Shown in pieces: positions 6,520-22,035 of a stretch of 64,000 nucleotides of DNA. Source of the stretch: Acidobacteriota bacterium (GTDB taxonomy: Bacteria; Acidobacteriota; Vicinamibacteria; Vicinamibacterales; UBA823); NCBI GenBank assembly GCA_002730525.1, contig PCAK01000007.1, positions 1,409 through 65,408 on the forward strand. Reading direction: 5' to 3'. Every line of letters begins with the position of its first letter. Positions within the stretch are counted from its first letter, which is position 1. A model generated the notes under the pieces. That model searched no databases. It was not told the origin of the DNA and saw only the letters and a list, made by a program, of their open reading frames with translations. Made by a program: the position numbers and the translations under genes.

Positions 6520-7042
6520 GGGGCGGCGAGTATATCAAGGAGGCGGGAGGCCCGGCGGCGGGTGAGCCGAGCGTACGACGGCGGAAGCGTAACTCAGCCC
6601 GGTTCCAGCCGATCTCCAGGACGCGGGCCGGCAGCGGGATCGCATAGGTGTTCCAACCGGGCTCCAACGTCACGCGACCCACACGACGGTCGTTGACCTC
6701 CAGGCTGAGCCCATGTCGAACGGAAGCGCCGAGACCGGAGTTGACCTCGATCTCCAGCGTGCCGGAACCGCCGGTCGCCACGTAGAAGCGGAAGCTCGCC
6801 CACCAGTCGACAATGGCGCGACTGTCGGCCGTCGTCGAAACCTGGGCACGCCGCTCCCAGCCATGGCCCAGGAAGTCGTCGAACGCCGGGTCCACCGGGT
6901 CGATGACGTCGGTGCTGACCGAAAGCTGCTGAGCCGGGACGTAGTCGGTAAACGGTTCGACGCGCTGGGGCGAGTTGCACGCCGCCAAGGCCAGCACAAG
7001 CGCCGCGCCGAGCCAGGTTGACCAACGCAAAGGTGTCATCAC
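6290..7042 (-). CDS. Hypothetical lipoprotein (C-terminus uncertain)
   Basis: Signal plus lipobox MMTPLRWSTWLGAALVLALAAC. The first ~155 aa look protein-like (FYVATGGSGTLEIEVNSG...). The last ~75 codons (6290..6519) overlap the transporter gene and look like off-frame sequence. Confidence 0.45.
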   Translation of the reverse strand: MMTPLRWSTWLGAALVLALAACNSPQRVEPFTDYVPAQQLSVSTDVIDPVDPAFDDFLGHGWERRAQVSTTADSRAIVDWWASFRFYVATGGSGTLEIEVNSGLGASVRHGLSLEVNDRRVGRVTLEPGWNTYAIPLPARVLEIGWNRAELRFRRRTLGSPAAGPPASLIYSPPHVRCRFGLVARPAGCDRRQLHDPAARRLSRDRARLAGRPLRRRRAEPNHGGLPDPALPHTSRRDLALLSGPGERHA

Positions 7043-7094
7043 CGACCCTCAAGGTGTCTCAGGACCGAGCGGTTGTCGCCCTGCGCTACACTCA

Positions 7095-10016
7095 ATGCCG
7101 ATGCGCGACCCGATTCATCCGATCGCCGAGCGCCTCGCGCGCGAGTTGGAGGGCGACGTCCGGTTCGACGCGATGACGCGGGAGCTGTTCTCGACCGATG
7201 CGAGCAGCTATCGGATCGTGCCGCTCGGCGTCGTCTTTCCGAAGCATGCTGACGACGTCCAGCGGATTGTCGATCTGACGGCGCGCGATCGGATCGCACT
7301 CTTGCCGCGCGGCGGAGGCACCAGCCTGGCCGGCCAAGCCGTTGGCGAGGCACTGGTCATCGATTTCTCCAAGTACATGAACCGCGTCGTCGAAACCCAC
7401 ATCCCCGAGCACGACGACGACGCGTGGGCGAGGGTGCAGCCTGGAGTCGTCCTCGACAACTTCAATACCCACCTGCGGCCCACCGGCTTCATGTTCGGCC
7501 CGGAGGTCTCGCCGTCGTCCCAGGCGACGCTGGGCGGCATGGTGGGCAACAACTCGTGCGGGTCGCGCTCGATCCGCTACGGCAAGATGGTCGACCACGT
7601 CATCGAGCTGCAGGGGTTCCTGGCGAGCGGCGCGCCCTTTCGATTCGGACAGCTGTCGGAAACCGAACTGGCCACCGCACTCGCGGGCGATGACGACACC
7701 GACCGGATCATCCAGACGGTGAACCACCTCGCCGTCACCCACCGTGACGAGGTCGATCGCCGTTTCCCGAAGATTCAGCGCCGCGTGGCCGGCTACAACC
7801 TCGACGAACTGGGGCTCAGGAACGGATTCAACCTGGCGGGGCTGCTGGTCGGGTCCGAGGGCACGCTGGCCATCAACCACGAAGCCCGCGTCCGGCTCGT
7901 CCGGAAGTCTGCCCACACAATCCTCGGCGTCTGCCACTTCGACACCTTCGCCGCATCGATGCACGCCTCGGCGCCGATCGTCGGGCTGTCGCCCCACGCC
8001 ATCGAACTCAGCGACAAGCTGCTGATCGATCTGGCGCGCGAGTCGCCGCTCCATCGCGACAAGCTCCACTTCGTCCGCGGCCGTCCCGAAGCGCTGCTCA
8101 TCGTCGAGTTCGCCGGCGAGACGCTCGAACCGCTGATGCGGCAGCTCGACGACCTGGCGACGCTGATGCGCGACCTCGGCCACGGCGACAACGTCGTCCG
8201 GATCACCGAGCCCGCGCGCTGCGCCGACGTCTGGGCGGTCCGCAAGGCGGGCCTCGGCCTGTTCGGCAGCGTCAAGGGCGATGCCAAGCCTGTCGCGTTC
8301 GTGGAGGATACGGCGGTTGCGCCCGAACAGTTGCCGGCGTTCACGGCCGAGTTCCGCGAGTTGCTCGAGCGCCACGGCGTCCGCGCCGCCTTCTACGGCC
8401 ATGCGTCGGTCGGGTGTCTGCACATCCGCCCGATGCTCGACCTGCGCACGGCCGATGGCGTCACGAAGTACCGCGCGGTCGCCGAAGAGGTGACCGAGCT
8501 GGCCCTGAAGTACGGCGGCACCCACTCGGGTGAACATGGCGAGGGGCTGGCCCGCTCCGAATTCAACCCCAAGGTCTTCGGGGAGACGCTCTACGCCGCG
8601 TTCCGGGAGGTGAAGGCGGCGTTCGACCCCGACGGCCGGATGAACCCCGGCAAGAAGGTCGACGCGCCGCCGATGGACGAGAACCTCCGCTACGGTGCCG
8701 ATTACACCACTGCATTCCCGGTGCCGCTGCTGGACTACTCGGACGTCGGCACGATGGCCGACGCGATCGAGATGTGCAACGGCAACGCACGCTGCCGCAA
8801 GTCCGAGGTCGGCACGATGTGTCCTTCCTACATGGTGACGCTCGACGAGATGCACTCGACGCGCGGCCGCGCCAACGCGCTGCGCGCGGCAATCTCGGGA
8901 GCGCTGCCCGCCGAGAGTCTCTTCTCGGAGGAGATGCACGAGGTCATGGATCTGTGCATCGGATGCAAGGCGTGCAAGCTCGAGTGCCCGTCGCACGTCG
9001 ACATGGCGAAACACAAATACGAGTTTCAGATCGGCTACCACGCGCGCGAGGGCGTCCCGCTTCGCACCCTGGCCCTGGGGAACGCGCACACGGTAGCGGC
9101 AATCGGTTCGGCGCTCGCGCCGCTCTCGAACCTCGGCCGATCCGGCCCGCTACGCTGGCTCACCAACGCTGTGCTCGGTCTCGACCCGCGGCGGTCACTC
9201 CCGCGATTCCGACGCGACACGTTCTGGCGCTGGTGGCAGCGGCGGACGGCGCCGGCCCACCAGGACCCGGCGCACACGGTGGTGCTGCTGGCCGACACCT
9301 TCACGAACTTCTACGAGCCGGAAGTGCCAATCGATGCGGTGCGGGTGCTCGAGGCAGCGGGGCGAACGGTCGTCGTGCCGGAGCCGACGTGCTGTGGCCG
9401 ACCGCAGATCTCGAAGGGGCTTCACACCCAGGCCCTCGATGCCGCCGGCGCGTCCCTCCGACAGTTGACCGGGTACGTCGAGCGCGGCGTGCCGATCCTC
9501 GGCCTCGAACCATCGTGCCTCCTCACCTACCGGGACGAGTACCCGATGTTGCTGCGGACCGACGCCGCGCGTTCGCTGGCGGCCGGATCCTGGCTGGTGG
9601 AGGAGTACCTCGCGAACGAGAGTGCGGCGGGCCGTCTGGCTCTGCCCCTTCGACCGGTCGACACGCCGGCGCTACTCCACGGACATTGTCATCAGAAGGC
9701 GATCGCGACGACCCGGGCCACGCGGGCGGTGCTCGATCTGGTGCCTGGCCTCGACCTCACCGAGATTGATTCGGGGTGCTGCGGCATGGCCGGCTCGTTC
9801 GGCTACGAGGCCGGCCACTTCGACATCTCGATGGCGATGGCGGAGCGCGTTCTGGCGCCGCGCGTCCGGGGAGCGTCGAGCGACACGATCATCGTGGCCA
9901 ACGGCACATCGTGCCGGCACCAGATCGCGGACACGACCGGCCGCCAAGCGATGCACGCCGTGCAGGTGCTGGCGCGGGCGCTGGACTTCGCCTCCGGCTC
10001 GTCCCGGCAGCCCTGA
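7095..10016 (+). CDS. FAD-binding oxidase fused to a (Fe-S)-binding/CCG domain (GlcD-GlcF fusion, YdiJ-like)
   Basis: About 973 aa. The N-terminal part is an FAD-binding type-4 oxidase (LPRGGGTSLAGQAVG). The middle has 4Fe-4S Cys clusters (CIGCKACKLECPSH). The C-terminal part has cysteine-rich CCG repeats (EPSCLLTYRDE, SGCCGMAGSFG). ORF opens at 6975; ATG at 7095 (MPMRDPIHP) avoids overlap with the divergent lipoprotein gene. Confidence 0.85.
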   Translation: MPMRDPIHPIAERLARELEGDVRFDAMTRELFSTDASSYRIVPLGVVFPKHADDVQRIVDLTARDRIALLPRGGGTSLAGQAVGEALVIDFSKYMNRVVETHIPEHDDDAWARVQPGVVLDNFNTHLRPTGFMFGPEVSPSSQATLGGMVGNNSCGSRSIRYGKMVDHVIELQGFLASGAPFRFGQLSETELATALAGDDDTDRIIQTVNHLAVTHRDEVDRRFPKIQRRVAGYNLDELGLRNGFNLAGLLVGSEGTLAINHEARVRLVRKSAHTILGVCHFDTFAASMHASAPIVGLSPHAIELSDKLLIDLARESPLHRDKLHFVRGRPEALLIVEFAGETLEPLMRQLDDLATLMRDLGHGDNVVRITEPARCADVWAVRKAGLGLFGSVKGDAKPVAFVEDTAVAPEQLPAFTAEFRELLERHGVRAAFYGHASVGCLHIRPMLDLRTADGVTKYRAVAEEVTELALKYGGTHSGEHGEGLARSEFNPKVFGETLYAAFREVKAAFDPDGRMNPGKKVDAPPMDENLRYGADYTTAFPVPLLDYSDVGTMADAIEMCNGNARCRKSEVGTMCPSYMVTLDEMHSTRGRANALRAAISGALPAESLFSEEMHEVMDLCIGCKACKLECPSHVDMAKHKYEFQIGYHAREGVPLRTLALGNAHTVAAIGSALAPLSNLGRSGPLRWLTNAVLGLDPRRSLPRFRRDTFWRWWQRRTAPAHQDPAHTVVLLADTFTNFYEPEVPIDAVRVLEAAGRTVVVPEPTCCGRPQISKGLHTQALDAAGASLRQLTGYVERGVPILGLEPSCLLTYRDEYPMLLRTDAARSLAAGSWLVEEYLANESAAGRLALPLRPVDTPALLHGHCHQKAIATTRATRAVLDLVPGLDLTEIDSGCCGMAGSFGYEAGHFDISMAMAERVLAPRVRGASSDTIIVANGTSCRHQIADTTGRQAMHAVQVLARALDFASGSSRQP

Positions 10017-10062
10017 AGGACTGCCCTACACCTGTCCGAGACTCGTCCCGGCAGCCCTACGC
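9983..10062. repeat. REP-like hairpin element (one full copy plus a truncated tandem copy)
   Basis: ggacttcgcctccggctcgtcccggcagccctgaaggactgccctaca at 9983..10030 is ~85% identical over 48 nt to 23443..23490. ctcgtcccggcagccctacgc at 10042..10062 repeats the flanks without the hairpin core. The first copy overlaps the last codons and stop of the FAD/Fe-S oxidase. Confidence 0.6.
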
Positions 10063-10792
10063 TTCGTCTCGTGCTCGGCCACGCAGCGTGCTCGCGGCCG
10101 CGGCGTCGAGCCACCAGGTGAGCGTGCCGTGCACTGGTACCAGGCGCTGCGCCGGCCAGCGATCGGGATCGTGCGGCCCCTCCAGCGTCTCAAGCACGGC
10201 GTCCGCCTTCGAGGCGCCGATCACAATCAGGTGCACCGCCGCACTTCGCTTGATGAACGCGGATGTCAATGTCAGCCGTCTCGGTGGCGGCTTCGGACTG
10301 TCGCGAACGGCCACGACCAACCGATCCGACCGACCGACCGCGCCCGCACCGGGAAAGAGCGATGCGATGTGGCCGTCCGGCCCCAGCCCGAGGAGAACCG
10401 CATCGAGCGCGGGCGCTTCGCCGCCCGTGGCGTCCCGGAGCACGCGCTCGTAGCTGGCAGCGACGTCCTCGAGGTCGGCTTCATCCAGATCGTCGCTTGC
10501 GACCATCGGGTGGATCCGATCCTCGGCCACCGGATCCGTCGCCAGGAGCGTTTCGCGGACCATCCGGTAGTTGCTATCGGCGTGGTCGCGGGGCACGACT
10601 CGCTCGTCGCTCCAGAACAGCTCGAGCGCATCCCAGGGCAAGTCGCCCCACGCCGCCGGTGAGGGCGAGCCGGTACGGGCCGCCGGCCGCCTGGCAGGCG
10701 CGCGCCTCTTCGACGATTGTGGCGGCCAGCGCCTGGTGCAATTCCCCGGCCTGGTCGAAGATGCGTCGTCGGGCTGCGGCTCCAATCTTCAT
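10057..10792 (-). pseudogene. pgl: 6-phosphogluconolactonase, apparently frameshifted
   Basis: The C-terminal ~200 aa lie in the frame of ORF 10057..10785 (ELFWSDERVVPRDHADSNYRMVRETLL, LGLGPDGHIASLFPG, SPKPPPRRLTLT). The family N-terminus MKIGAAARRRIFDQAGELHQALAATIVEEARACQAAGGPYRLALTGG lies in a different frame, starting at ATG 10792. The frames meet near 10648..10654. Total length is 736 nt, which is not a multiple of 3. Confidence 0.65.
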
Positions 10793-10863
10793 CGCCCCGA
10801 AGGATAGCAGGCCACGTCGGGGAATAGTCTGACGCGGCCGTCGGTGATAGGCTCTGCCTTCCG

Positions 10864-10949
10864 GAAGCCCAAGGCGAGCACAGCGCGCCTCGCGCGGGTC
10901 GGAGTGGGGCACTTGGGGTCCGCGCGGGGGTTCGGGGCGTAGCCCCGAC
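10864..10949 (+). repeat. Structured intergenic repeat, copy A (partner at 47651..47748)
   Basis: gaagcccaaggcgagcacagcgcgcctcgcgcgggtcggagtggggcacttggggtccgcgcgggggttcggggcgtagccccgac aligns nearly base for base with 47651..47748, apart from a 12-17 nt indel. It contains several hairpins. Confidence 0.65.
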
Positions 10950-10955
10950 TTAGAC

Positions 10956-11774
10956 ATGCCACTGACCCACACGATCGTCGCACCGCACACGCCCCGCATG
11001 GGTGTCGAGGAGCGCGCGCCCGACTTCGTTCGCGCCCTCAGCGAGAGCCAGAAGGAGATGGGCGCGGCGATCCGCGCGACGAAGCCCGACGTCCTCATCA
11101 TCAACTCGGCACACTGGGTCTGCACGTTCAACTGGCACGTCACCTGCCAGGCCGAGCATGTCGGTCACTGCGTCGCCGACGAGGCGCCGGACCTGATCGA
11201 CGGTGTGCCCTATCGCTATCGCGGCGATCCCGAGATGGGCCGGGCGATCCTCGCCGGGTTCGAGGCCGACGAGATTCCGTGCGCGCCCAACGAGAGCACG
11301 CACTTCCAGTGGGACTACGGATCGTGGGTGCCCAGCAAGCACCTCGACCCTGACGCCCAGTTGGCGATCATTCTCATTGGCACGGTCACGAGTTCCGACG
11401 TCGACGAGTGCATGAAAGCCGGCACCGCCATCCGGCGCGCCGTCGAAAAGCTGGACCGGCGCGCCGTCTTCGCCGCCAGCTGCGCGTTCACCCACGAACT
11501 CGTCCGCGGCCCCGCGTCCTGGCCGACCGAGGAGCGGCAGAAGCTCGACGGCAAGTTCATCGAGATGCTCACGTCGGGTCGAATTGCCGAGGCCAAGAGC
11601 TGGTTCAAGGAGTACAACGCGGCCGTCGTCGGTGAGATGGGTGGTCGCACCCTCGCCACGTTCCTCGGGTGCCTTGACGAAGCGTCGACACGACCCTACA
11701 CCGGAAAACAGTACGGCCCCTATACGCAGTCGTCGGGCAGCGGCAACGCCAACATCGCGCTCTGGCAGGCGTAG
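10956..11774 (+). CDS. Class III extradiol ring-cleavage dioxygenase, LigB family
   Basis: 272 aa. MPLTHTIVAPHTPRM...LIINSAHWV...WDYGSWVP resembles the LigB-type catalytic subunit. Family-level call only. Confidence 0.7.
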   Translation: MPLTHTIVAPHTPRMGVEERAPDFVRALSESQKEMGAAIRATKPDVLIINSAHWVCTFNWHVTCQAEHVGHCVADEAPDLIDGVPYRYRGDPEMGRAILAGFEADEIPCAPNESTHFQWDYGSWVPSKHLDPDAQLAIILIGTVTSSDVDECMKAGTAIRRAVEKLDRRAVFAASCAFTHELVRGPASWPTEERQKLDGKFIEMLTSGRIAEAKSWFKEYNAAVVGEMGGRTLATFLGCLDEASTRPYTGKQYGPYTQSSGSGNANIALWQA

Positions 11775-11810
11775 CGGACGGTTCCACCAGCCGAAAGGAA
11801 TAGGGCGAGG

Positions 11811-12182
11811 ATGAGCACGCAGGAAGACTACGAGAAGATCTACACCGAACTGATCGGGTTCGTACCGCCGCGTATCCACAACCGGATCCGGCTTGGCCTC
11901 GAAGTCGACCCCGAGTTGCTGCGCCAGGCCGAGGAGATCCGTCAGACAGCGATGTACCCGAAGTGCTTCGACGTGAAGACGGCTCAGCTGATGCTGGTCG
12001 GCATCTTGCTGGCCCACGCGGCACCCGCCGCCGAGTTCCACGCCCGTGCCGCCAAGCGCGCCGGCGCGACGAAAGAGGAGCTGCACGCGGTGGCCGGCCT
12101 GGCGTTCCTGTTCCGGGGCCTTCCCGCGTTCAACCTGGCGTCCGAGATCATCAACAAGATCTTCGACGAAGACGCCGCCTAG
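11811..12182 (+). CDS. Carboxymuconolactone decarboxylase (AhpD-like) family protein
   Basis: 123 aa. KTAQLMLVGILLAHAAPAAEFHARAAKRAGATKEELHAV matches the CMD-domain pattern. Confidence 0.7.
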   Translation: MSTQEDYEKIYTELIGFVPPRIHNRIRLGLEVDPELLRQAEEIRQTAMYPKCFDVKTAQLMLVGILLAHAAPAAEFHARAAKRAGATKEELHAVAGLAFLFRGLPAFNLASEIINKIFDEDAA

Positions 12183-12196
12183 CGACGTCACGGCCG

Positions 12197-12613
12197 ATGA
12201 AGCGCCTCGTCCAGGAACTGACGGTCGAGTGGGCGCACTGCGACGCCGCCGGCATTGTCTTCTACCCGTACTTCTACACCTGGTTCGACCAGGCCACTGA
12301 GCGGCTCTTCGGCGCCAACGGGCTGACCTACCCCGAACTGCGGACGCGCGGCATCGTCGGCATGCCACTGCTCGAAAGCGGAGCGAGCTACGAGAATCCC
12401 TGTCAGCTGGGCGAACGCTTGACGATGGACACGTGGGTCGACGACTGGCAGCGGAAGACGTTGCTGGTCAAGCATCGGCTGACGCACGCCGACGGGCGCC
12501 CCGCGCTAGAAGGCTTCGAGCGACGCGCCTGGGTCATCGCGGCGCCCGACGCTTCGCGCGGCATGCGGGCCGAGCCGATCCCGACAGACATCATCGCCCG
12601 CTTCGACGACTAG
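12197..12613 (+). CDS. Hotdog-fold acyl-CoA thioesterase (4HBT/YbgC-like)
   Basis: ATG at 12197 (residue 79 of ORF 11963..12613). VEWAHCDAAGIVFYPYFYTWFDQATERLF is the typical 4HBT N-terminal motif. Confidence 0.75.
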   Translation: MKRLVQELTVEWAHCDAAGIVFYPYFYTWFDQATERLFGANGLTYPELRTRGIVGMPLLESGASYENPCQLGERLTMDTWVDDWQRKTLLVKHRLTHADGRPALEGFERRAWVIAAPDASRGMRAEPIPTDIIARFDD

Positions 12614-12646: not shown

Positions 12647-13879
12647 ATGTCGCAGCAGTTGACGTCAGCAACGCCGGTTACCGCCCTGGGTTCGCCCGCG
12701 ATCGACACGCGCGTCGTCGGCATCTCCACGGCGCTGTTCGCGGCGGGCACCGTCTACCTGGCAGCGACGGTTCACGCGCAGCAGGCGATGCTGTTCCTGG
12801 TGGGCGGCGTGCTGGGGTTGCTGCTCTACCACGCCGCGTTCGGGTTCACCTCGTCGTGGCGGATCTTCATCGCCGACCGGCGCGGCGCCGGGCTGCGGGC
12901 GCAAATGCTGATGCTCGCGGTGGCGTGCCTGCTGTTCTTCCCGGTCCTGGCGTCGGGCAATCCGATCTTCACCGAGTCGATCCGCGGCAATGTCAGCCCG
13001 CTGGGCTTCTCGGTCGTGGCGGGCGCGTTCATCTTCGGCGTCGGCATGCAGATCGGCGGCGGTTGAGCGTCGGGCACCCTCTTTGCCGCCGGCGGCGGCA
13101 ACACCCGGACCATGATCACGCTCGGCGCCTTCATCGTCGGCTCGACGTTCGGCGCGCTGCACGAGCACTGGTGGAAGGCGCTGCCCGAGCTGCCGGCGGT
13201 ATCCCTGGTTGCCAGCCTGGGCCTCGCCGGTGGCCTGGCGACCAGCTTCGCGATGTTCGGCGGCGTCGTGGCGATCACGCTCATGGCCGAACGCCAGCGT
13301 CACGGCCGCGTGCGGCAGCCCGCCAGGGCGCCGCGGCACGGCATGGCTCGTATTCTCCGCGGACCGTGGCCCCTCGTTGTCGGCGCGGTCGGCCTGGCGC
13401 TCGCCAACTTTGCGACGCTGGCGCTGGCCGGCCGGCCCTGGGGCGTGACCTCCGGGTTCGCGCTCTGGGGCTCGAAGGTCGCCGGAGTGATCGGCTTTGC
13501 GCCTGAGTCCTGGCCCTACTGGGCGTCGGCATCACGGGCCGCCTCGCTCGAGGGCAGCCTGTCCACCGACATCACGTCGGTCATGAATTTCGGCATCATC
13601 TTCGGCGCGATGATGGCCGCCGGCTTGGCCGGACGATTCAGTCCGATCTGGCAGATCCCCCGGCGCTCGCTCGTGGCTGCCGTGCTCGGCGGGTTGCTGC
13701 TGGGCTACGGCGCGCGCCAGGCCTACGGCTGCAACATCGGCGCGTACTTCAGCGGCATCGCCTCGGGCAGCCTGCACGGCTGGCTCTGGCTGCTGGCGGC
13801 CTTCTGCGGCGGCATCCTCGGCACGCGGCTCAGGCCGCTGTTCGGCCTGGCGGTCGAGCGAACCGGTGGAAGCTGCTAG
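12647..13879 (+). CDS. YeeE/YedE family sulfur(selenium)-compound transporter, single reading frame interrupted by one in-frame TGA (13064..13066)
   Basis: Track ORFs 12647..13066 and 13112..13879 are in the same frame, and no other stop lies between them. Read-through gives ...GVGMQIGGG[TGA]ASGTLFAAGGGNTRTMITLGAF.... The second half carries the paralogous motif GARQAYGCNIGAYFSGIASGSLHGW. Total 411 codons, a normal length for the family. Confidence 0.75.
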
Positions 13880-20358: not shown

Positions 20359-21366
20359 CTAGGGCTGGAGCCGCTTCATCTTCTCCAGCAGCGTCGTTCG
20401 CTTCAACTGGAGCAGGTCGGCGGCCCGGCGCTTGTTGCCGTCGGCGCGCCTGAGCGCCTGCCGGATCAGTTCACGTTCGACGTCGTGGACGTAGTTCTCG
20501 AAGTCGATCCCGTCGTCGGGAAACGCGACTCGCACGGCCAGTCCTGGTTCGGCGGCCGCCTGGATCTCCGGCGGCAGGTCGGCGACATCGATCTGGGTAC
20601 GGCCCTGGCTGAACGCGAGCGTACGCTCGACGACGTTCTCGAGTTGCCGGATGTTGCCGGGCCAGGCGTAGGCCATCAATTGCCGCATCGCTTCCTGCGA
20701 CACGCCGACGTTGGGCCGCGGCGGGACGAGGTCGCGTCCGAGGCGCTCCAAGAAGTGCTGCGTCAAGATCGGGATGTCTTCCCGCCGATCCCGTAGCGGC
20801 GGCAACGGAATCGGAATGACGTTGAGTCGATAGAACAAGTCCTCCCGGAACGTGCCTTCCGCCACGAGCTGGGTCAGGTTGGAGTTGGTCGCCGCGATCA
20901 CCCGGACATCGACTCGTCGCTGCTCGAGTGAGCCGACGCGCTGCACCTCGCCCGCCTCCAGCGTGCGCAGCAGTTTCGCCTGCACGAGCGCCGGCAGTTC
21001 GCCGACCTCATCGAGAAACAGGGTGCCGCCGTGGGCCTGCTCGAACATGCCGACTTTGTTCTCGGTGGCGCCGGTGAATGCACCCCGGACGTGGCCGAAG
21101 AGCTCGCTCTCGAACAGCGTCTCGACTACGGCCGAACAGTTGATCGTGATGAACTTGCGGACTCGGCGAGGACCCTCGTGGTGGAGCGCGCGCGCGACCA
21201 GCTCCTTCCCGGTGCCGGTCTCGCCGGTAATCAACGCGGTCCGCACGTGGGGCGCGAGCCGGCGAATCAAGTCGAACAGCTCCTGCATCCCCGGCCCGCG
21301 GCCGATCATGCCGCAGAACTCGGTGCGCTGCGCGAGGTCGCCCTCGATCGCCAGGCGTTCCCTCAA
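20359..21366 (-). CDS. Sigma-54-dependent activator module (AAA+ domain plus Fis-type HTH), downstream part of a split NtrC-family response regulator
   Basis: GETGTGKELVARALH (Walker A), GAFTGA (sigma-54 contact loop), DEVGELP (Walker B), and C-terminal NKRRAADLLQLKRTTLLEKMKRL (HTH). It begins directly after an in-frame TAG. The only immediate start is TTG, with no obvious RBS. Confidence 0.8.
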   Translation of the reverse strand: MRERLAIEGDLAQRTEFCGMIGRGPGMQELFDLIRRLAPHVRTALITGETGTGKELVARALHHEGPRRVRKFITINCSAVVETLFESELFGHVRGAFTGATENKVGMFEQAHGGTLFLDEVGELPALVQAKLLRTLEAGEVQRVGSLEQRRVDVRVIAATNSNLTQLVAEGTFREDLFYRLNVIPIPLPPLRDRREDIPILTQHFLERLGRDLVPPRPNVGVSQEAMRQLMAYAWPGNIRQLENVVERTLAFSQGRTQIDVADLPPEIQAAAEPGLAVRVAFPDDGIDFENYVHDVERELIRQALRRADGNKRRAADLLQLKRTTLLEKMKRLQP

Positions 21367-21762
21367 CTACGACACGTCACGCTTGATGTCGGCCAACAGG
21401 TCCCGCAGGCGATGCAGGTCGAACGGCTTGGTCAGGTAGTCTCGCGCGCCGAGCTTGACAGCTTCGACGGCCGAATCGATCGTCGCCTGCCCCGACATGA
21501 TGACGACGCGGCAGGACTGGTCGGTCGCCCGGATCGCCTTGATGACCTCGAGGCCGCCGACGTCGGGCATCATGAGGTCGACGAGGACGAGATCGACACG
21601 CGCCTCCGCCATCCGCTCCATCGCCTGACGGCCGCCGGTGCAGGTGAGTACGTCGAAGCCCTCGCGGCGCGCCACGCGGCCGAGCATCGCCAGCACGGAG
21701 GGATCGTCGTCCACGACGAGGACGAGAGGCCGGTCGGGCGCCGGCTGAGGATCCGACGTCAT
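21367..21762 (-). CDS. Response-regulator receiver domain, upstream part of the split NtrC-family regulator
   Basis: ATG 21762: MTSDPQPAPDRPLVLVVDDDPSVLAML...DLVLVDLMMPDVGG...KPFDLHRL. Ends at TAG 21367..21369, in frame with the AAA+ module. Confidence 0.75.
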   Translation of the reverse strand: MTSDPQPAPDRPLVLVVDDDPSVLAMLGRVARREGFDVLTCTGGRQAMERMAEARVDLVLVDLMMPDVGGLEVIKAIRATDQSCRVVIMSGQATIDSAVEAVKLGARDYLTKPFDLHRLRDLLADIKRDVS

Positions 21763-22035
21763 CGATTCGATAGGGCGAACGCTGCGCCGGCCATGATCCA
21801 GTCGCCGCAGAAGCAAGACTCGTGACCGGAACGGCCGTTCACGTCGCCATGATACCGCGCGCGTTGCCGGTACCGACGCCCCGCGTGTTGCTTGCGTTGC
21901 ATCGATCGCACGACTAGACTGCGGCCGACACGACACCAACGGACACTTTGCGACGATAGATACGGACACCTCCGAGAATGACGACGCGTTCGCCGATCGT
22001 CGCCTGGCGCTTCACCCCTTGATCAGAATCCGACG

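Follow-up and report, generated by a model that had tools for sequence, protein, structure and literature searches.

A YeeE/YedE-family gene with an in-frame UGA codon

The 64-kb stretch of DNA analysed here (hereafter the window; G+C content about 67%) carries on its forward strand, at 12647..13879, a gene for a membrane transporter of the YeeE/YedE family (PF04143) that comprises 410 codons, one of them an in-frame UGA, and terminates on a TAG. The original prediction described the locus as two ORFs, 12647..13066 and 13112..13879, sharing one frame in which the TGA at 13064-13066 is the sole intervening stop; the ORF coordinates and the translation agree with this description, and the peptide read across the stop, GVGMQIGGG-[TGA]-ASGTLFAAGGGN, was reproduced. 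The read-through product matches Pfam PF04143 (Sulf_transp) with E = 1.8e-62 and 212 bits (gathering cut-off 27) over profile positions 1-309 of 310, and the PDB offers no sequence matches to it other than the entries for YeeE, the thiosulfate transporter of Spirochaeta thermophila.

The UGA (13064..13066, forward strand), proposed to encode selenocysteine (Sec) as residue 140, lies in the motif G-G-G-U-A-S-G and aligns on Cys91 of S. thermophila YeeE (StYeeE; 'LAGGCASG', PDB 6leo/8j4c). The paralogous cysteine that the second half of the protein had been said to retain as a TGC codon was located at 13730..13732 on the forward strand (Cys362, in AYGCNIG), aligned to Cys293 of StYeeE. This column is invariant across the 44 homologues examined and retains Cys in 96% of the aligned full-length TGA genes (n = 24), the lone exception being a frameshifted copy (L103); the partner of Sec140 is probably Cys362. 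The UGA is separated from the next ATG by 15 codons (13067..13111, forward strand; ASGTLFAAGGGNTRT) whose amino acids are conserved in the TGA orthologues and which, on the strength of this comparison, we read as a translated protein segment and not as an intergenic spacer. They contain the proposed bacterial SECIS hairpin (13083..13101, forward strand; TTGCCGCC-GGC-GGCGGCAA), an 8-bp stem formed by a 5' arm, UUGCCGCC (13083-13090), and a 3' arm, GGCGGCAA (13094-13101), closed by a GGC loop (13091-13093). Both its coordinates and its start 16 nt past the UGA are as first reported, and its loop begins 24 nt from the UGA.

Other genes of the window had been thought to carry plain nonsense or frameshift lesions, an impression that holds for one candidate at most among the pairs scanned: an in-frame TAG at 21367-21369 in the gene for an NtrC-type regulator may be a plain nonsense lesion, whereas most of the other pairs, namely the same-frame adjacent ORFs around 2050, 5242, 11775, 50576 and 54652, are complete separate genes (the scan of same-frame ORF pairs left out 37671-39335/39342-39578). 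A GC3-based scan of the window for further genes with an in-frame TGA was swamped by high-GC3 antisense frames and gave none that was convincing.

Conservation of the UGA among homologues

Genomes were scanned at one per species for loci encoding relatives of the transporter, and the codon at the aligned column was read in each of the 80 loci. Cys is encoded in 74 of them (TGC in 52, TGT in 22) and the remaining six carry TGA. Five of these six (L001-L005) belong to Acidobacteria/Vicinamibacterales MAGs, encode proteins 79-89% identical to the window protein and are syntenic with the window; the sixth (L026), from an acidobacterial groundwater MAG, is about 58% identical and has a different gene context. 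Metagenome contigs were scanned with a DNA pattern in which the motif was given with its TGA fixed and the sequence after the TGA left unconstrained, and yielded 24 further TGA-bearing genes (L081-L104). The TGA thus occurs in 31 loci, made up of the window, six species-level genomes and 24 metagenome contigs, that span about 58-89% identity within the window's clade and include a second clade besides.

Among database homologues, 233 of 240 have Cys at the TGA column, and the seven that do not include C-terminal fragments of TGA genes (for example P0038 and P0166). The supposition that the TGA replaces the conserved pore cysteine is borne out by this alignment, in which it falls on the invariant column equal to Cys91 of StYeeE, and orthologues with a TGA at the same column, on which the original prediction had made its case depend, are present in both the genome and the metagenome sets. 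Throughout these loci the break coincides exactly with the Cys codon and takes the form of a TGA every time, with TAA or TAG never found. The frames on both sides of it are intact in all seven genome-derived genes (the window, L001-L005 and L026). Two of the TGA copies look damaged, L103 being frameshifted and L096 truncated.

A conserved hairpin downstream of the UGA

Bacterial SECIS (bSECIS) elements have been defined by an apical loop of 3-9 nt, a stem of 4-16 bp, a G in one of the first two loop positions, a UGA-to-loop distance of 16-37 nt and a minimum free energy (MFE) of -7.5 kcal/mol or lower (PMC13188914). The window hairpin, with an energy of -12.9 kcal/mol, falls within every one of these bounds, and hairpins that do so were found in 28 of 30 TGA genes and in 13 of the 74 Cys genes. 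The best hairpin of a gene has a median energy of -11.9 kcal/mol in the TGA genes and -3.95 kcal/mol in the Cys genes; for the in-register hairpin, the MFE lies between -11.6 and -13.6 in the seven TGA genes that come from genomes, while the best of the 74 Cys genes reaches -9.9. Two Cys-type genes (L047 and L048) encode the identical FAAGGGN peptide with a TGC codon and are devoid of the hairpin.

A caveat attached to the original prediction was that a hairpin made of Ala and Gly codons could be incidental. Taken by itself the hairpin would justify this caution, since the stand-alone fold of 13064-13125 gave z = -1.13, an ordinary value for a sequence of 70% G+C, and its significance accordingly comes from the comparison across genes only; in that comparison the caution loses its force, none of the Cys genes having an in-register hairpin as stable. 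The 15 codons after the TGA vary at synonymous sites outside the hairpin. Codons +4 to +12 are nearly frozen at theirs within the window's clade; inside the hairpin the third loop base alone varies freely (GGC, GGG or GGU), and the one other exception turns a G-C pair into G-U. Synonymous diversity averages 0.186 over these codons and 0.46 over the gene, the former being the second lowest value of 98 windows along the gene, although such rank tests, like the shuffle tests, overstate independence because the TGA genes are related. Across 13 distinct hairpin sequences of this first class, 94% of cells are paired, and compensatory changes affect two of the eight pairs in three sequences (U-A to C-G in L095 and L104; G-C to A-U in L102 and L104). 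These patterns all point in one direction and lend modest support, the sequences being related, to the notion that the hairpin is under RNA-level selection.

The idea that a SECIS element occupies this position, as originally suspected, is strengthened by the geometry of the hairpin and by its distribution between TGA and Cys genes, with Rfam adding nothing meaningful: a gathering search of the window and a permissive search of 13000-13200 returned only chance-level miRNA and snoRNA matches. An extended stem pairing the UGA region with 13120-13130, proposed by RNAalifold and MFE folding, was dropped, several of its pairs being broken and none compensated.

A second clade of UGA-containing genes

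Thirteen of the metagenome TGA genes encode GGGUASGTLFQ[VLF]GGG (FQVGGG type) in place of the peptide ending in FAAGGGN. Their hairpin (CUCUUCC-AGGUN-GGAGGAG) has a 5-nt loop that contains GGU or GUU and begins 19 nt past the UGA; this second class of hairpin is conserved and shows no double changes. A neighbour-joining tree without support values places the window's clade as a monophyletic branch within acidobacterial genes of the Cys type, and has the second TGA clade branching separately from it. The nearest full-length database relatives of the second clade are 65-71% identical and of the Cys type, those with a name being Candidatus Rokubacteria. That two different peptides should be accompanied by two different hairpins of one geometry after the same UGA is hard to explain otherwise than by SECIS function.

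Decoding of the UGA and alternative explanations

In our view the region 12647-13879 very probably encodes a single 410-residue YeeE/YedE-type transporter in which the UGA at codon 140 is decoded as Sec by way of the SECIS element at 13083-13101. The stem-loop would act as a bacterial SECIS for SelB carrying Sec-tRNA(Sec), decoding of the UGA as Sec would give one continuous protein of 410 residues, and Sec would stand in for the first of two pore cysteines, one of which is found in each internal repeat. The UGA is conserved, its column is occupied by Cys in homologues, the sequence downstream of it is under coding selection, and the selected hairpin has the right geometry; from these we infer SelB-dependent insertion at UGA-140. 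The original prediction had leaned towards selenocysteine over a nonsense mutation, and the conserved TGA, the downstream selection and the hairpin all point the same way.

A nonsense mutation in a decaying gene, or an error of assembly or base calling, would have asked for very little, TGC being a single substitution away from TGA, and the copies L103 and L096, which look damaged, together with the in-frame TAG that one other gene of the window may carry, speak in favour of such a lesion. Against this stand the 31 loci that share the TGA at pairwise synonymous divergences (pS) of up to 0.6-0.7, and the ratios of dN/dS among the genome-derived TGA genes, which at 0.09-0.45 downstream of the UGA are as low as upstream of it (0.07-0.41) and hence indicate that the downstream part is translated. 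A lesion, moreover, would not select for a hairpin behind it. Public assemblies contain split products identical to those of the window in 107 blocks (the 139-aa product) and 95 blocks (the 255-aa product), and a 75-kb scaffold in ENA (ERZ23491262, scaffold_401) has the same TGA and the same hairpin; this recurrence in independent assemblies, which served as a proxy for the mapping of raw reads, excludes a base-call error, and the divergence among the TGA contigs excludes that they are copies of one assembly. We therefore consider decay or error very improbable, and we give no more credence to the view that the TGA is a true stop separating two genes, an N-terminal half of 139 residues and a C-terminal part of 255 residues that would form a heterodimer like PmpB/PmpA. 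Half-size relatives of YeeE of this name do exist and have been proposed to act as a heterodimer (PMC11582611), gene callers see two PF04143 genes at the locus, and the window gene has an ATG 15 codons past the TGA. A split at this point, however, would cut the invariant GGG-C-ASG loop motif and remove its essential Cys, and it would leave without reason both the exact position of the break and the exclusive use of TGA for it. No restart codon after the UGA is conserved across the TGA genes, 19 of the 31 having no ATG, GTG or TTG within 25 codons past the TGA, and this shortage of start codons, combined with the conservation as amino acids of the 15 codons that precede the ATG in the window gene, excludes an arrangement of the PmpB/PmpA kind.

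If the UGA is read through, the residue inserted could be one other than Sec, be it Cys delivered by a SelB-dependent tRNA-Cys of the selC* type or a different residue delivered by an opal-suppressing allo-tRNA. Stop codons are known to be read as Cys, Ser or Ala by tRNAs similar to tRNA-Sec, and allo-tRNAs are frequent in acidobacterial contigs (PMC5389517); the conserved UGA, the selection downstream and the hairpin would be equally compatible with SelB delivering Cys. Nor was the Sec machinery seen in the DNA at hand: tblastn searches with E. coli SelA, SelB and SelD found no match for selA, selB or selD in the window and 104 loci, a search space of 1.25 Mb in all (the 64-kb window plus 1.18 Mb) that consists mostly of the flanks of homologues and is uninformative on the genomes as wholes, and ARAGORN detected no tRNA in the window or in any TGA locus, and no tRNA-Sec in any of the loci. 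On the other hand, selC* genes have been reported in Firmicutes, Thermodesulfobacteria, Nitrospirae and Proteobacteria but not in Acidobacteria (PMC5389517), and Sec decoding is known in some Acidobacteria (PMC1794560). A global suppressor conflicts with the use of TGA as the terminal stop of 16 of the 35 genes in the window, and among the TGA-column genes themselves 12 of 26 end on TGA; as an ordinary terminator in the genes of the window, TGA cannot have been reassigned, and a variant genetic code was discarded. Maintaining a costly UGA and hairpin for the sake of a mere Cys would bring no obvious benefit, with TGC one mutation away and Cys encoded in 74 homologues, and YeeE/YedE has independently been catalogued as a selenoprotein family. 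Insertion of a residue other than Sec is thus improbable, if somewhat less so than a lesion or a pair of genes.

Decoding of the UGA as Sec would repair the split annotation (139 + 255 residues) that roughly a hundred blocks of public assemblies give for the locus. It marks Vicinamibacterales-type Acidobacteria as probable users of selenocysteine, and with them a second lineage, perhaps related to Rokubacteria.

Predicted structure and function of the transporter

Tanaka et al. (PMC7449682) showed that StYeeE cannot do without C91 and C293, for which Ser is no substitute and which are separated by about 7 A in the constriction of its hourglass fold, and that C22 is dispensable. The window protein has the UGA, and hence the proposed Sec, at the position of C91 and keeps C293; a Cys at the position of C22 is absent from it and from its subfamily, so that the set of three cysteines typical of TsuA/YeeE is not found. 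A Cys homologue 71% identical to the window protein (P0002) was taken as its stand-in for structure prediction. The model obtained (pLDDT 75) was matched by Foldseek to 6lep/6leo with a probability of 1.00 and TM values of 0.54-0.69, the YeeE structures being the only PDB matches with E <= 0.001, and judged on this model of a homologue the window protein is predicted to adopt the YeeE hourglass fold.

Assignment to a named transporter group met with less success. The best-scoring NCBIfam model, YedE/FdhT (NF033796), gave 136 bits where its cut-off is 350, and the TsuA models NF041049 and NF052577 gave 39 bits (cut-off 645) and 64 bits (cut-off 400). A TusA-like partner (YeeD/TsuB) was not among the 10 flanking genes scanned, neither yedF nor selD was seen as a neighbour of the window gene in the flanking genes and the loci searched, and clustering of the neighbours over 105 loci revealed no family or partner gene conserved across all of them. 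Synteny is limited to close relatives, in which genes for FAD-oxidase/Fe-S/CCG, LigB, CMD and 4HBT precede the YeeE/YedE gene. Because of the scores below cut-off, the lack of a TusA-like neighbour and the lack of a conserved neighbour family, the window protein is assigned to an uncharacterised subfamily with two cysteine positions.

By analogy with StYeeE, Sec140 and Cys362 would line the constriction of the pore. At neutral pH a selenolate is ionised, and its nucleophilicity exceeds that of a thiol. Its presence in place of Cys therefore suggests that the chemistry of the pore goes beyond hydrogen bonding alone. Sec140 would probably engage the sulfane sulfur (or selenium) of the cargo anion, either by an interaction or by a short-lived bond, or else pair with Cys362 in a selenenylsulfide, and chemistry of this kind would make the pore relay faster or redox-gated. 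It is conceivable, if rather unlikely, that selection has placed Sec repeatedly at the pore centre, in at least two lineages each with a SECIS of its own. On this reading the ionised selenol, unable to act as donor in the S-H...S hydrogen bond that has been put forward for the thiosulfate relay, would imply nucleophilic or redox chemistry for the pore chalcogens of the family, be it a transient Se-S(Se) bond to the cargo or a Sec140-Cys362 selenenylsulfide gate, and the subfamily would import sulfane sulfur or selenium species by covalent relay or redox gating in bacteria of soil and groundwater. The natural exchange of Cys for Sec at an essential pore residue may in any event serve as a probe of whether YeeE transport relies on hydrogen bonding or on covalent chalcogen chemistry.

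Relation to known selenoproteins, SECIS elements and transporters

The original prediction did not place the family on the standard lists of bacterial selenoproteins, a point that needs correcting: YeeE/YedE (PF04143, motif GUxSG, with WP_012471001.1 as an example) already figures in published catalogues of prokaryotic selenoproteins, Peng et al. (2016) count five Sec-YeeE/YedE in five organisms in a supplementary table, and a 2022 review lists them as well (PMC9312934). The window gene is therefore no new category, Sec-YeeE/YedE having been catalogued since at least 2016, but adds to a kind of selenoprotein already known, from a new lineage and perhaps a new subfamily. It shares with the catalogued proteins membership of PF04143, the Sec motif GUxSG (here G-U-A-S-G), the placement of Sec in the loop of the first repeat and the presence of Cys in homologues. 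It differs in coming from Acidobacteriota (Vicinamibacterales MAGs). In the published catalogues and the review we found Sec-YeeE/YedE listed or counted, and no analysis of the family beyond such listing; the two SECIS types and the comparative evidence presented here were not found in them.

The window hairpin resembles the E. coli fdhF-type SECIS and the bSECIS consensus in being a stem-loop that lies inside the coding region immediately downstream of the UGA, and agrees with the consensus in having a G in the first loop positions and a UGA-to-loop distance of 24 nt, within 16-37 nt. Unlike the fdhF-type element, with which it has no sequence similarity, it consists of a minimal 3-nt GGN loop on a perfect, G+C-rich stem of 8 bp without a bulged U.

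With the TsuA/YeeE thiosulfate importers (S. thermophila, PDB 6LEO; E. coli YeeE) the window protein has in common the predicted fold and the positions of C91 and C293. It departs from them in the proposed Sec at C91, the absence of C22 and a length greater by about 80 residues, and its gene has no YeeD/TsuB (TusA-like) gene next to it. YedE/FdhT (NF033796) belongs to the same superfamily and has been linked to selenium use by comparative genomics; but whereas YedE is proposed to transport selenium, the window protein would itself contain it.

Annotation and gene neighborhood of the transporter locus

The transporter locus is also carried by a public contig of 74,957 bp, ENA ERZ23491262 scaffold_401 (L107 and L108 among the homologue loci), whose stretch from the TGA to the proposed SECIS hairpin is identical to that of the window over the 91 bases read. 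The contig probably represents the source itself or a strain nearly identical to it. On this contig the gene is annotated as two separate ones, both PF04143, with products of 139 and 255 amino acids. Because identical 139- and 255-residue split products are indexed in approximately 100 blocks of assemblies, the mis-annotation of the transporter is systematic.

Upstream of the transporter gene lies a block (6945-12613) that is conserved among close relatives (L001-L005). Its products are a 1023-residue FAD-oxidase/4Fe-4S/CCG fusion, a subunit of a LigB-type extradiol dioxygenase, a protein of the carboxymuconolactone-decarboxylase family and a 4HBT thioesterase; the transporter gene comes next. 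The block resembles a cluster for the catabolism of aromatic or acyl-CoA compounds, and any link between it and the transporter is not conserved beyond the clade.

An in-frame TAG elsewhere in the window

The original prediction held that other genes in the window carry plain nonsense or frameshift lesions. The one candidate found for this is an NtrC-type response regulator encoded on the minus strand (20359-22011), whose linker seems to be interrupted by an in-frame TAG (21367-21369). The receiver domain (21370-22011) shares its frame with the sigma-54 AAA+ and HTH_8 domains (20359-21366), the residues across the stop reading '...DIKRDVS*LRERLAIEGDLAQRTEFCGMIG'. Either this TAG is a simple nonsense lesion, or it marks the boundary of two adjacent genes, the latter reading being suggested by the TTG that immediately follows the stop.

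A clade-specific cysteine and a second clade of TGA-type genes

Near the 3' end of the transporter gene, a second stretch of low synonymous variation (approximately 13802-13828, codons +246 to +253 after the TGA) equals the hairpin trough in depth, at 0.18-0.23 compared with a mean of 0.46 for the gene. Within it lies the codon (13805-13807) of an additional cysteine, Cys387, in the last helix (peptide context AAFCGGIL). This cysteine is present in every one of the 13 TGA genes that form the core Vicinamibacterales clade and in none of the 74 Cys-type homologues, most of which have alanine at this column. It is missing from the metagenome TGA locus L095 and from a second TGA clade, and the alignment has a gap at this column in the genome TGA locus L026. 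Cys387 may act as a partner of the selenocysteine that is specific to this clade, or its presence may be coincidental.

The second clade of YeeE-type TGA genes, found on metagenome contigs (L082-L084, L086, L088, L090-L092, L096, L099-L101 and L103), is characterized by the motif GGGUASGTLFQ[VLF]GGG and by a hairpin distinct to the clade, CUCUUCC-AGGUN-GGAGGAG, whose loop lies 19 nt past the UGA. Two of its copies show apparent damage: L103, identical to L101 across their shared stretch, loses the frame approximately 65 codons past the TGA, and L096 is terminated by a TAG 55 codons past the TGA. Such damage would reflect either decay of the copies or errors of assembly. The closest named Cys relatives of this second clade originate from Candidatus Rokubacteria.
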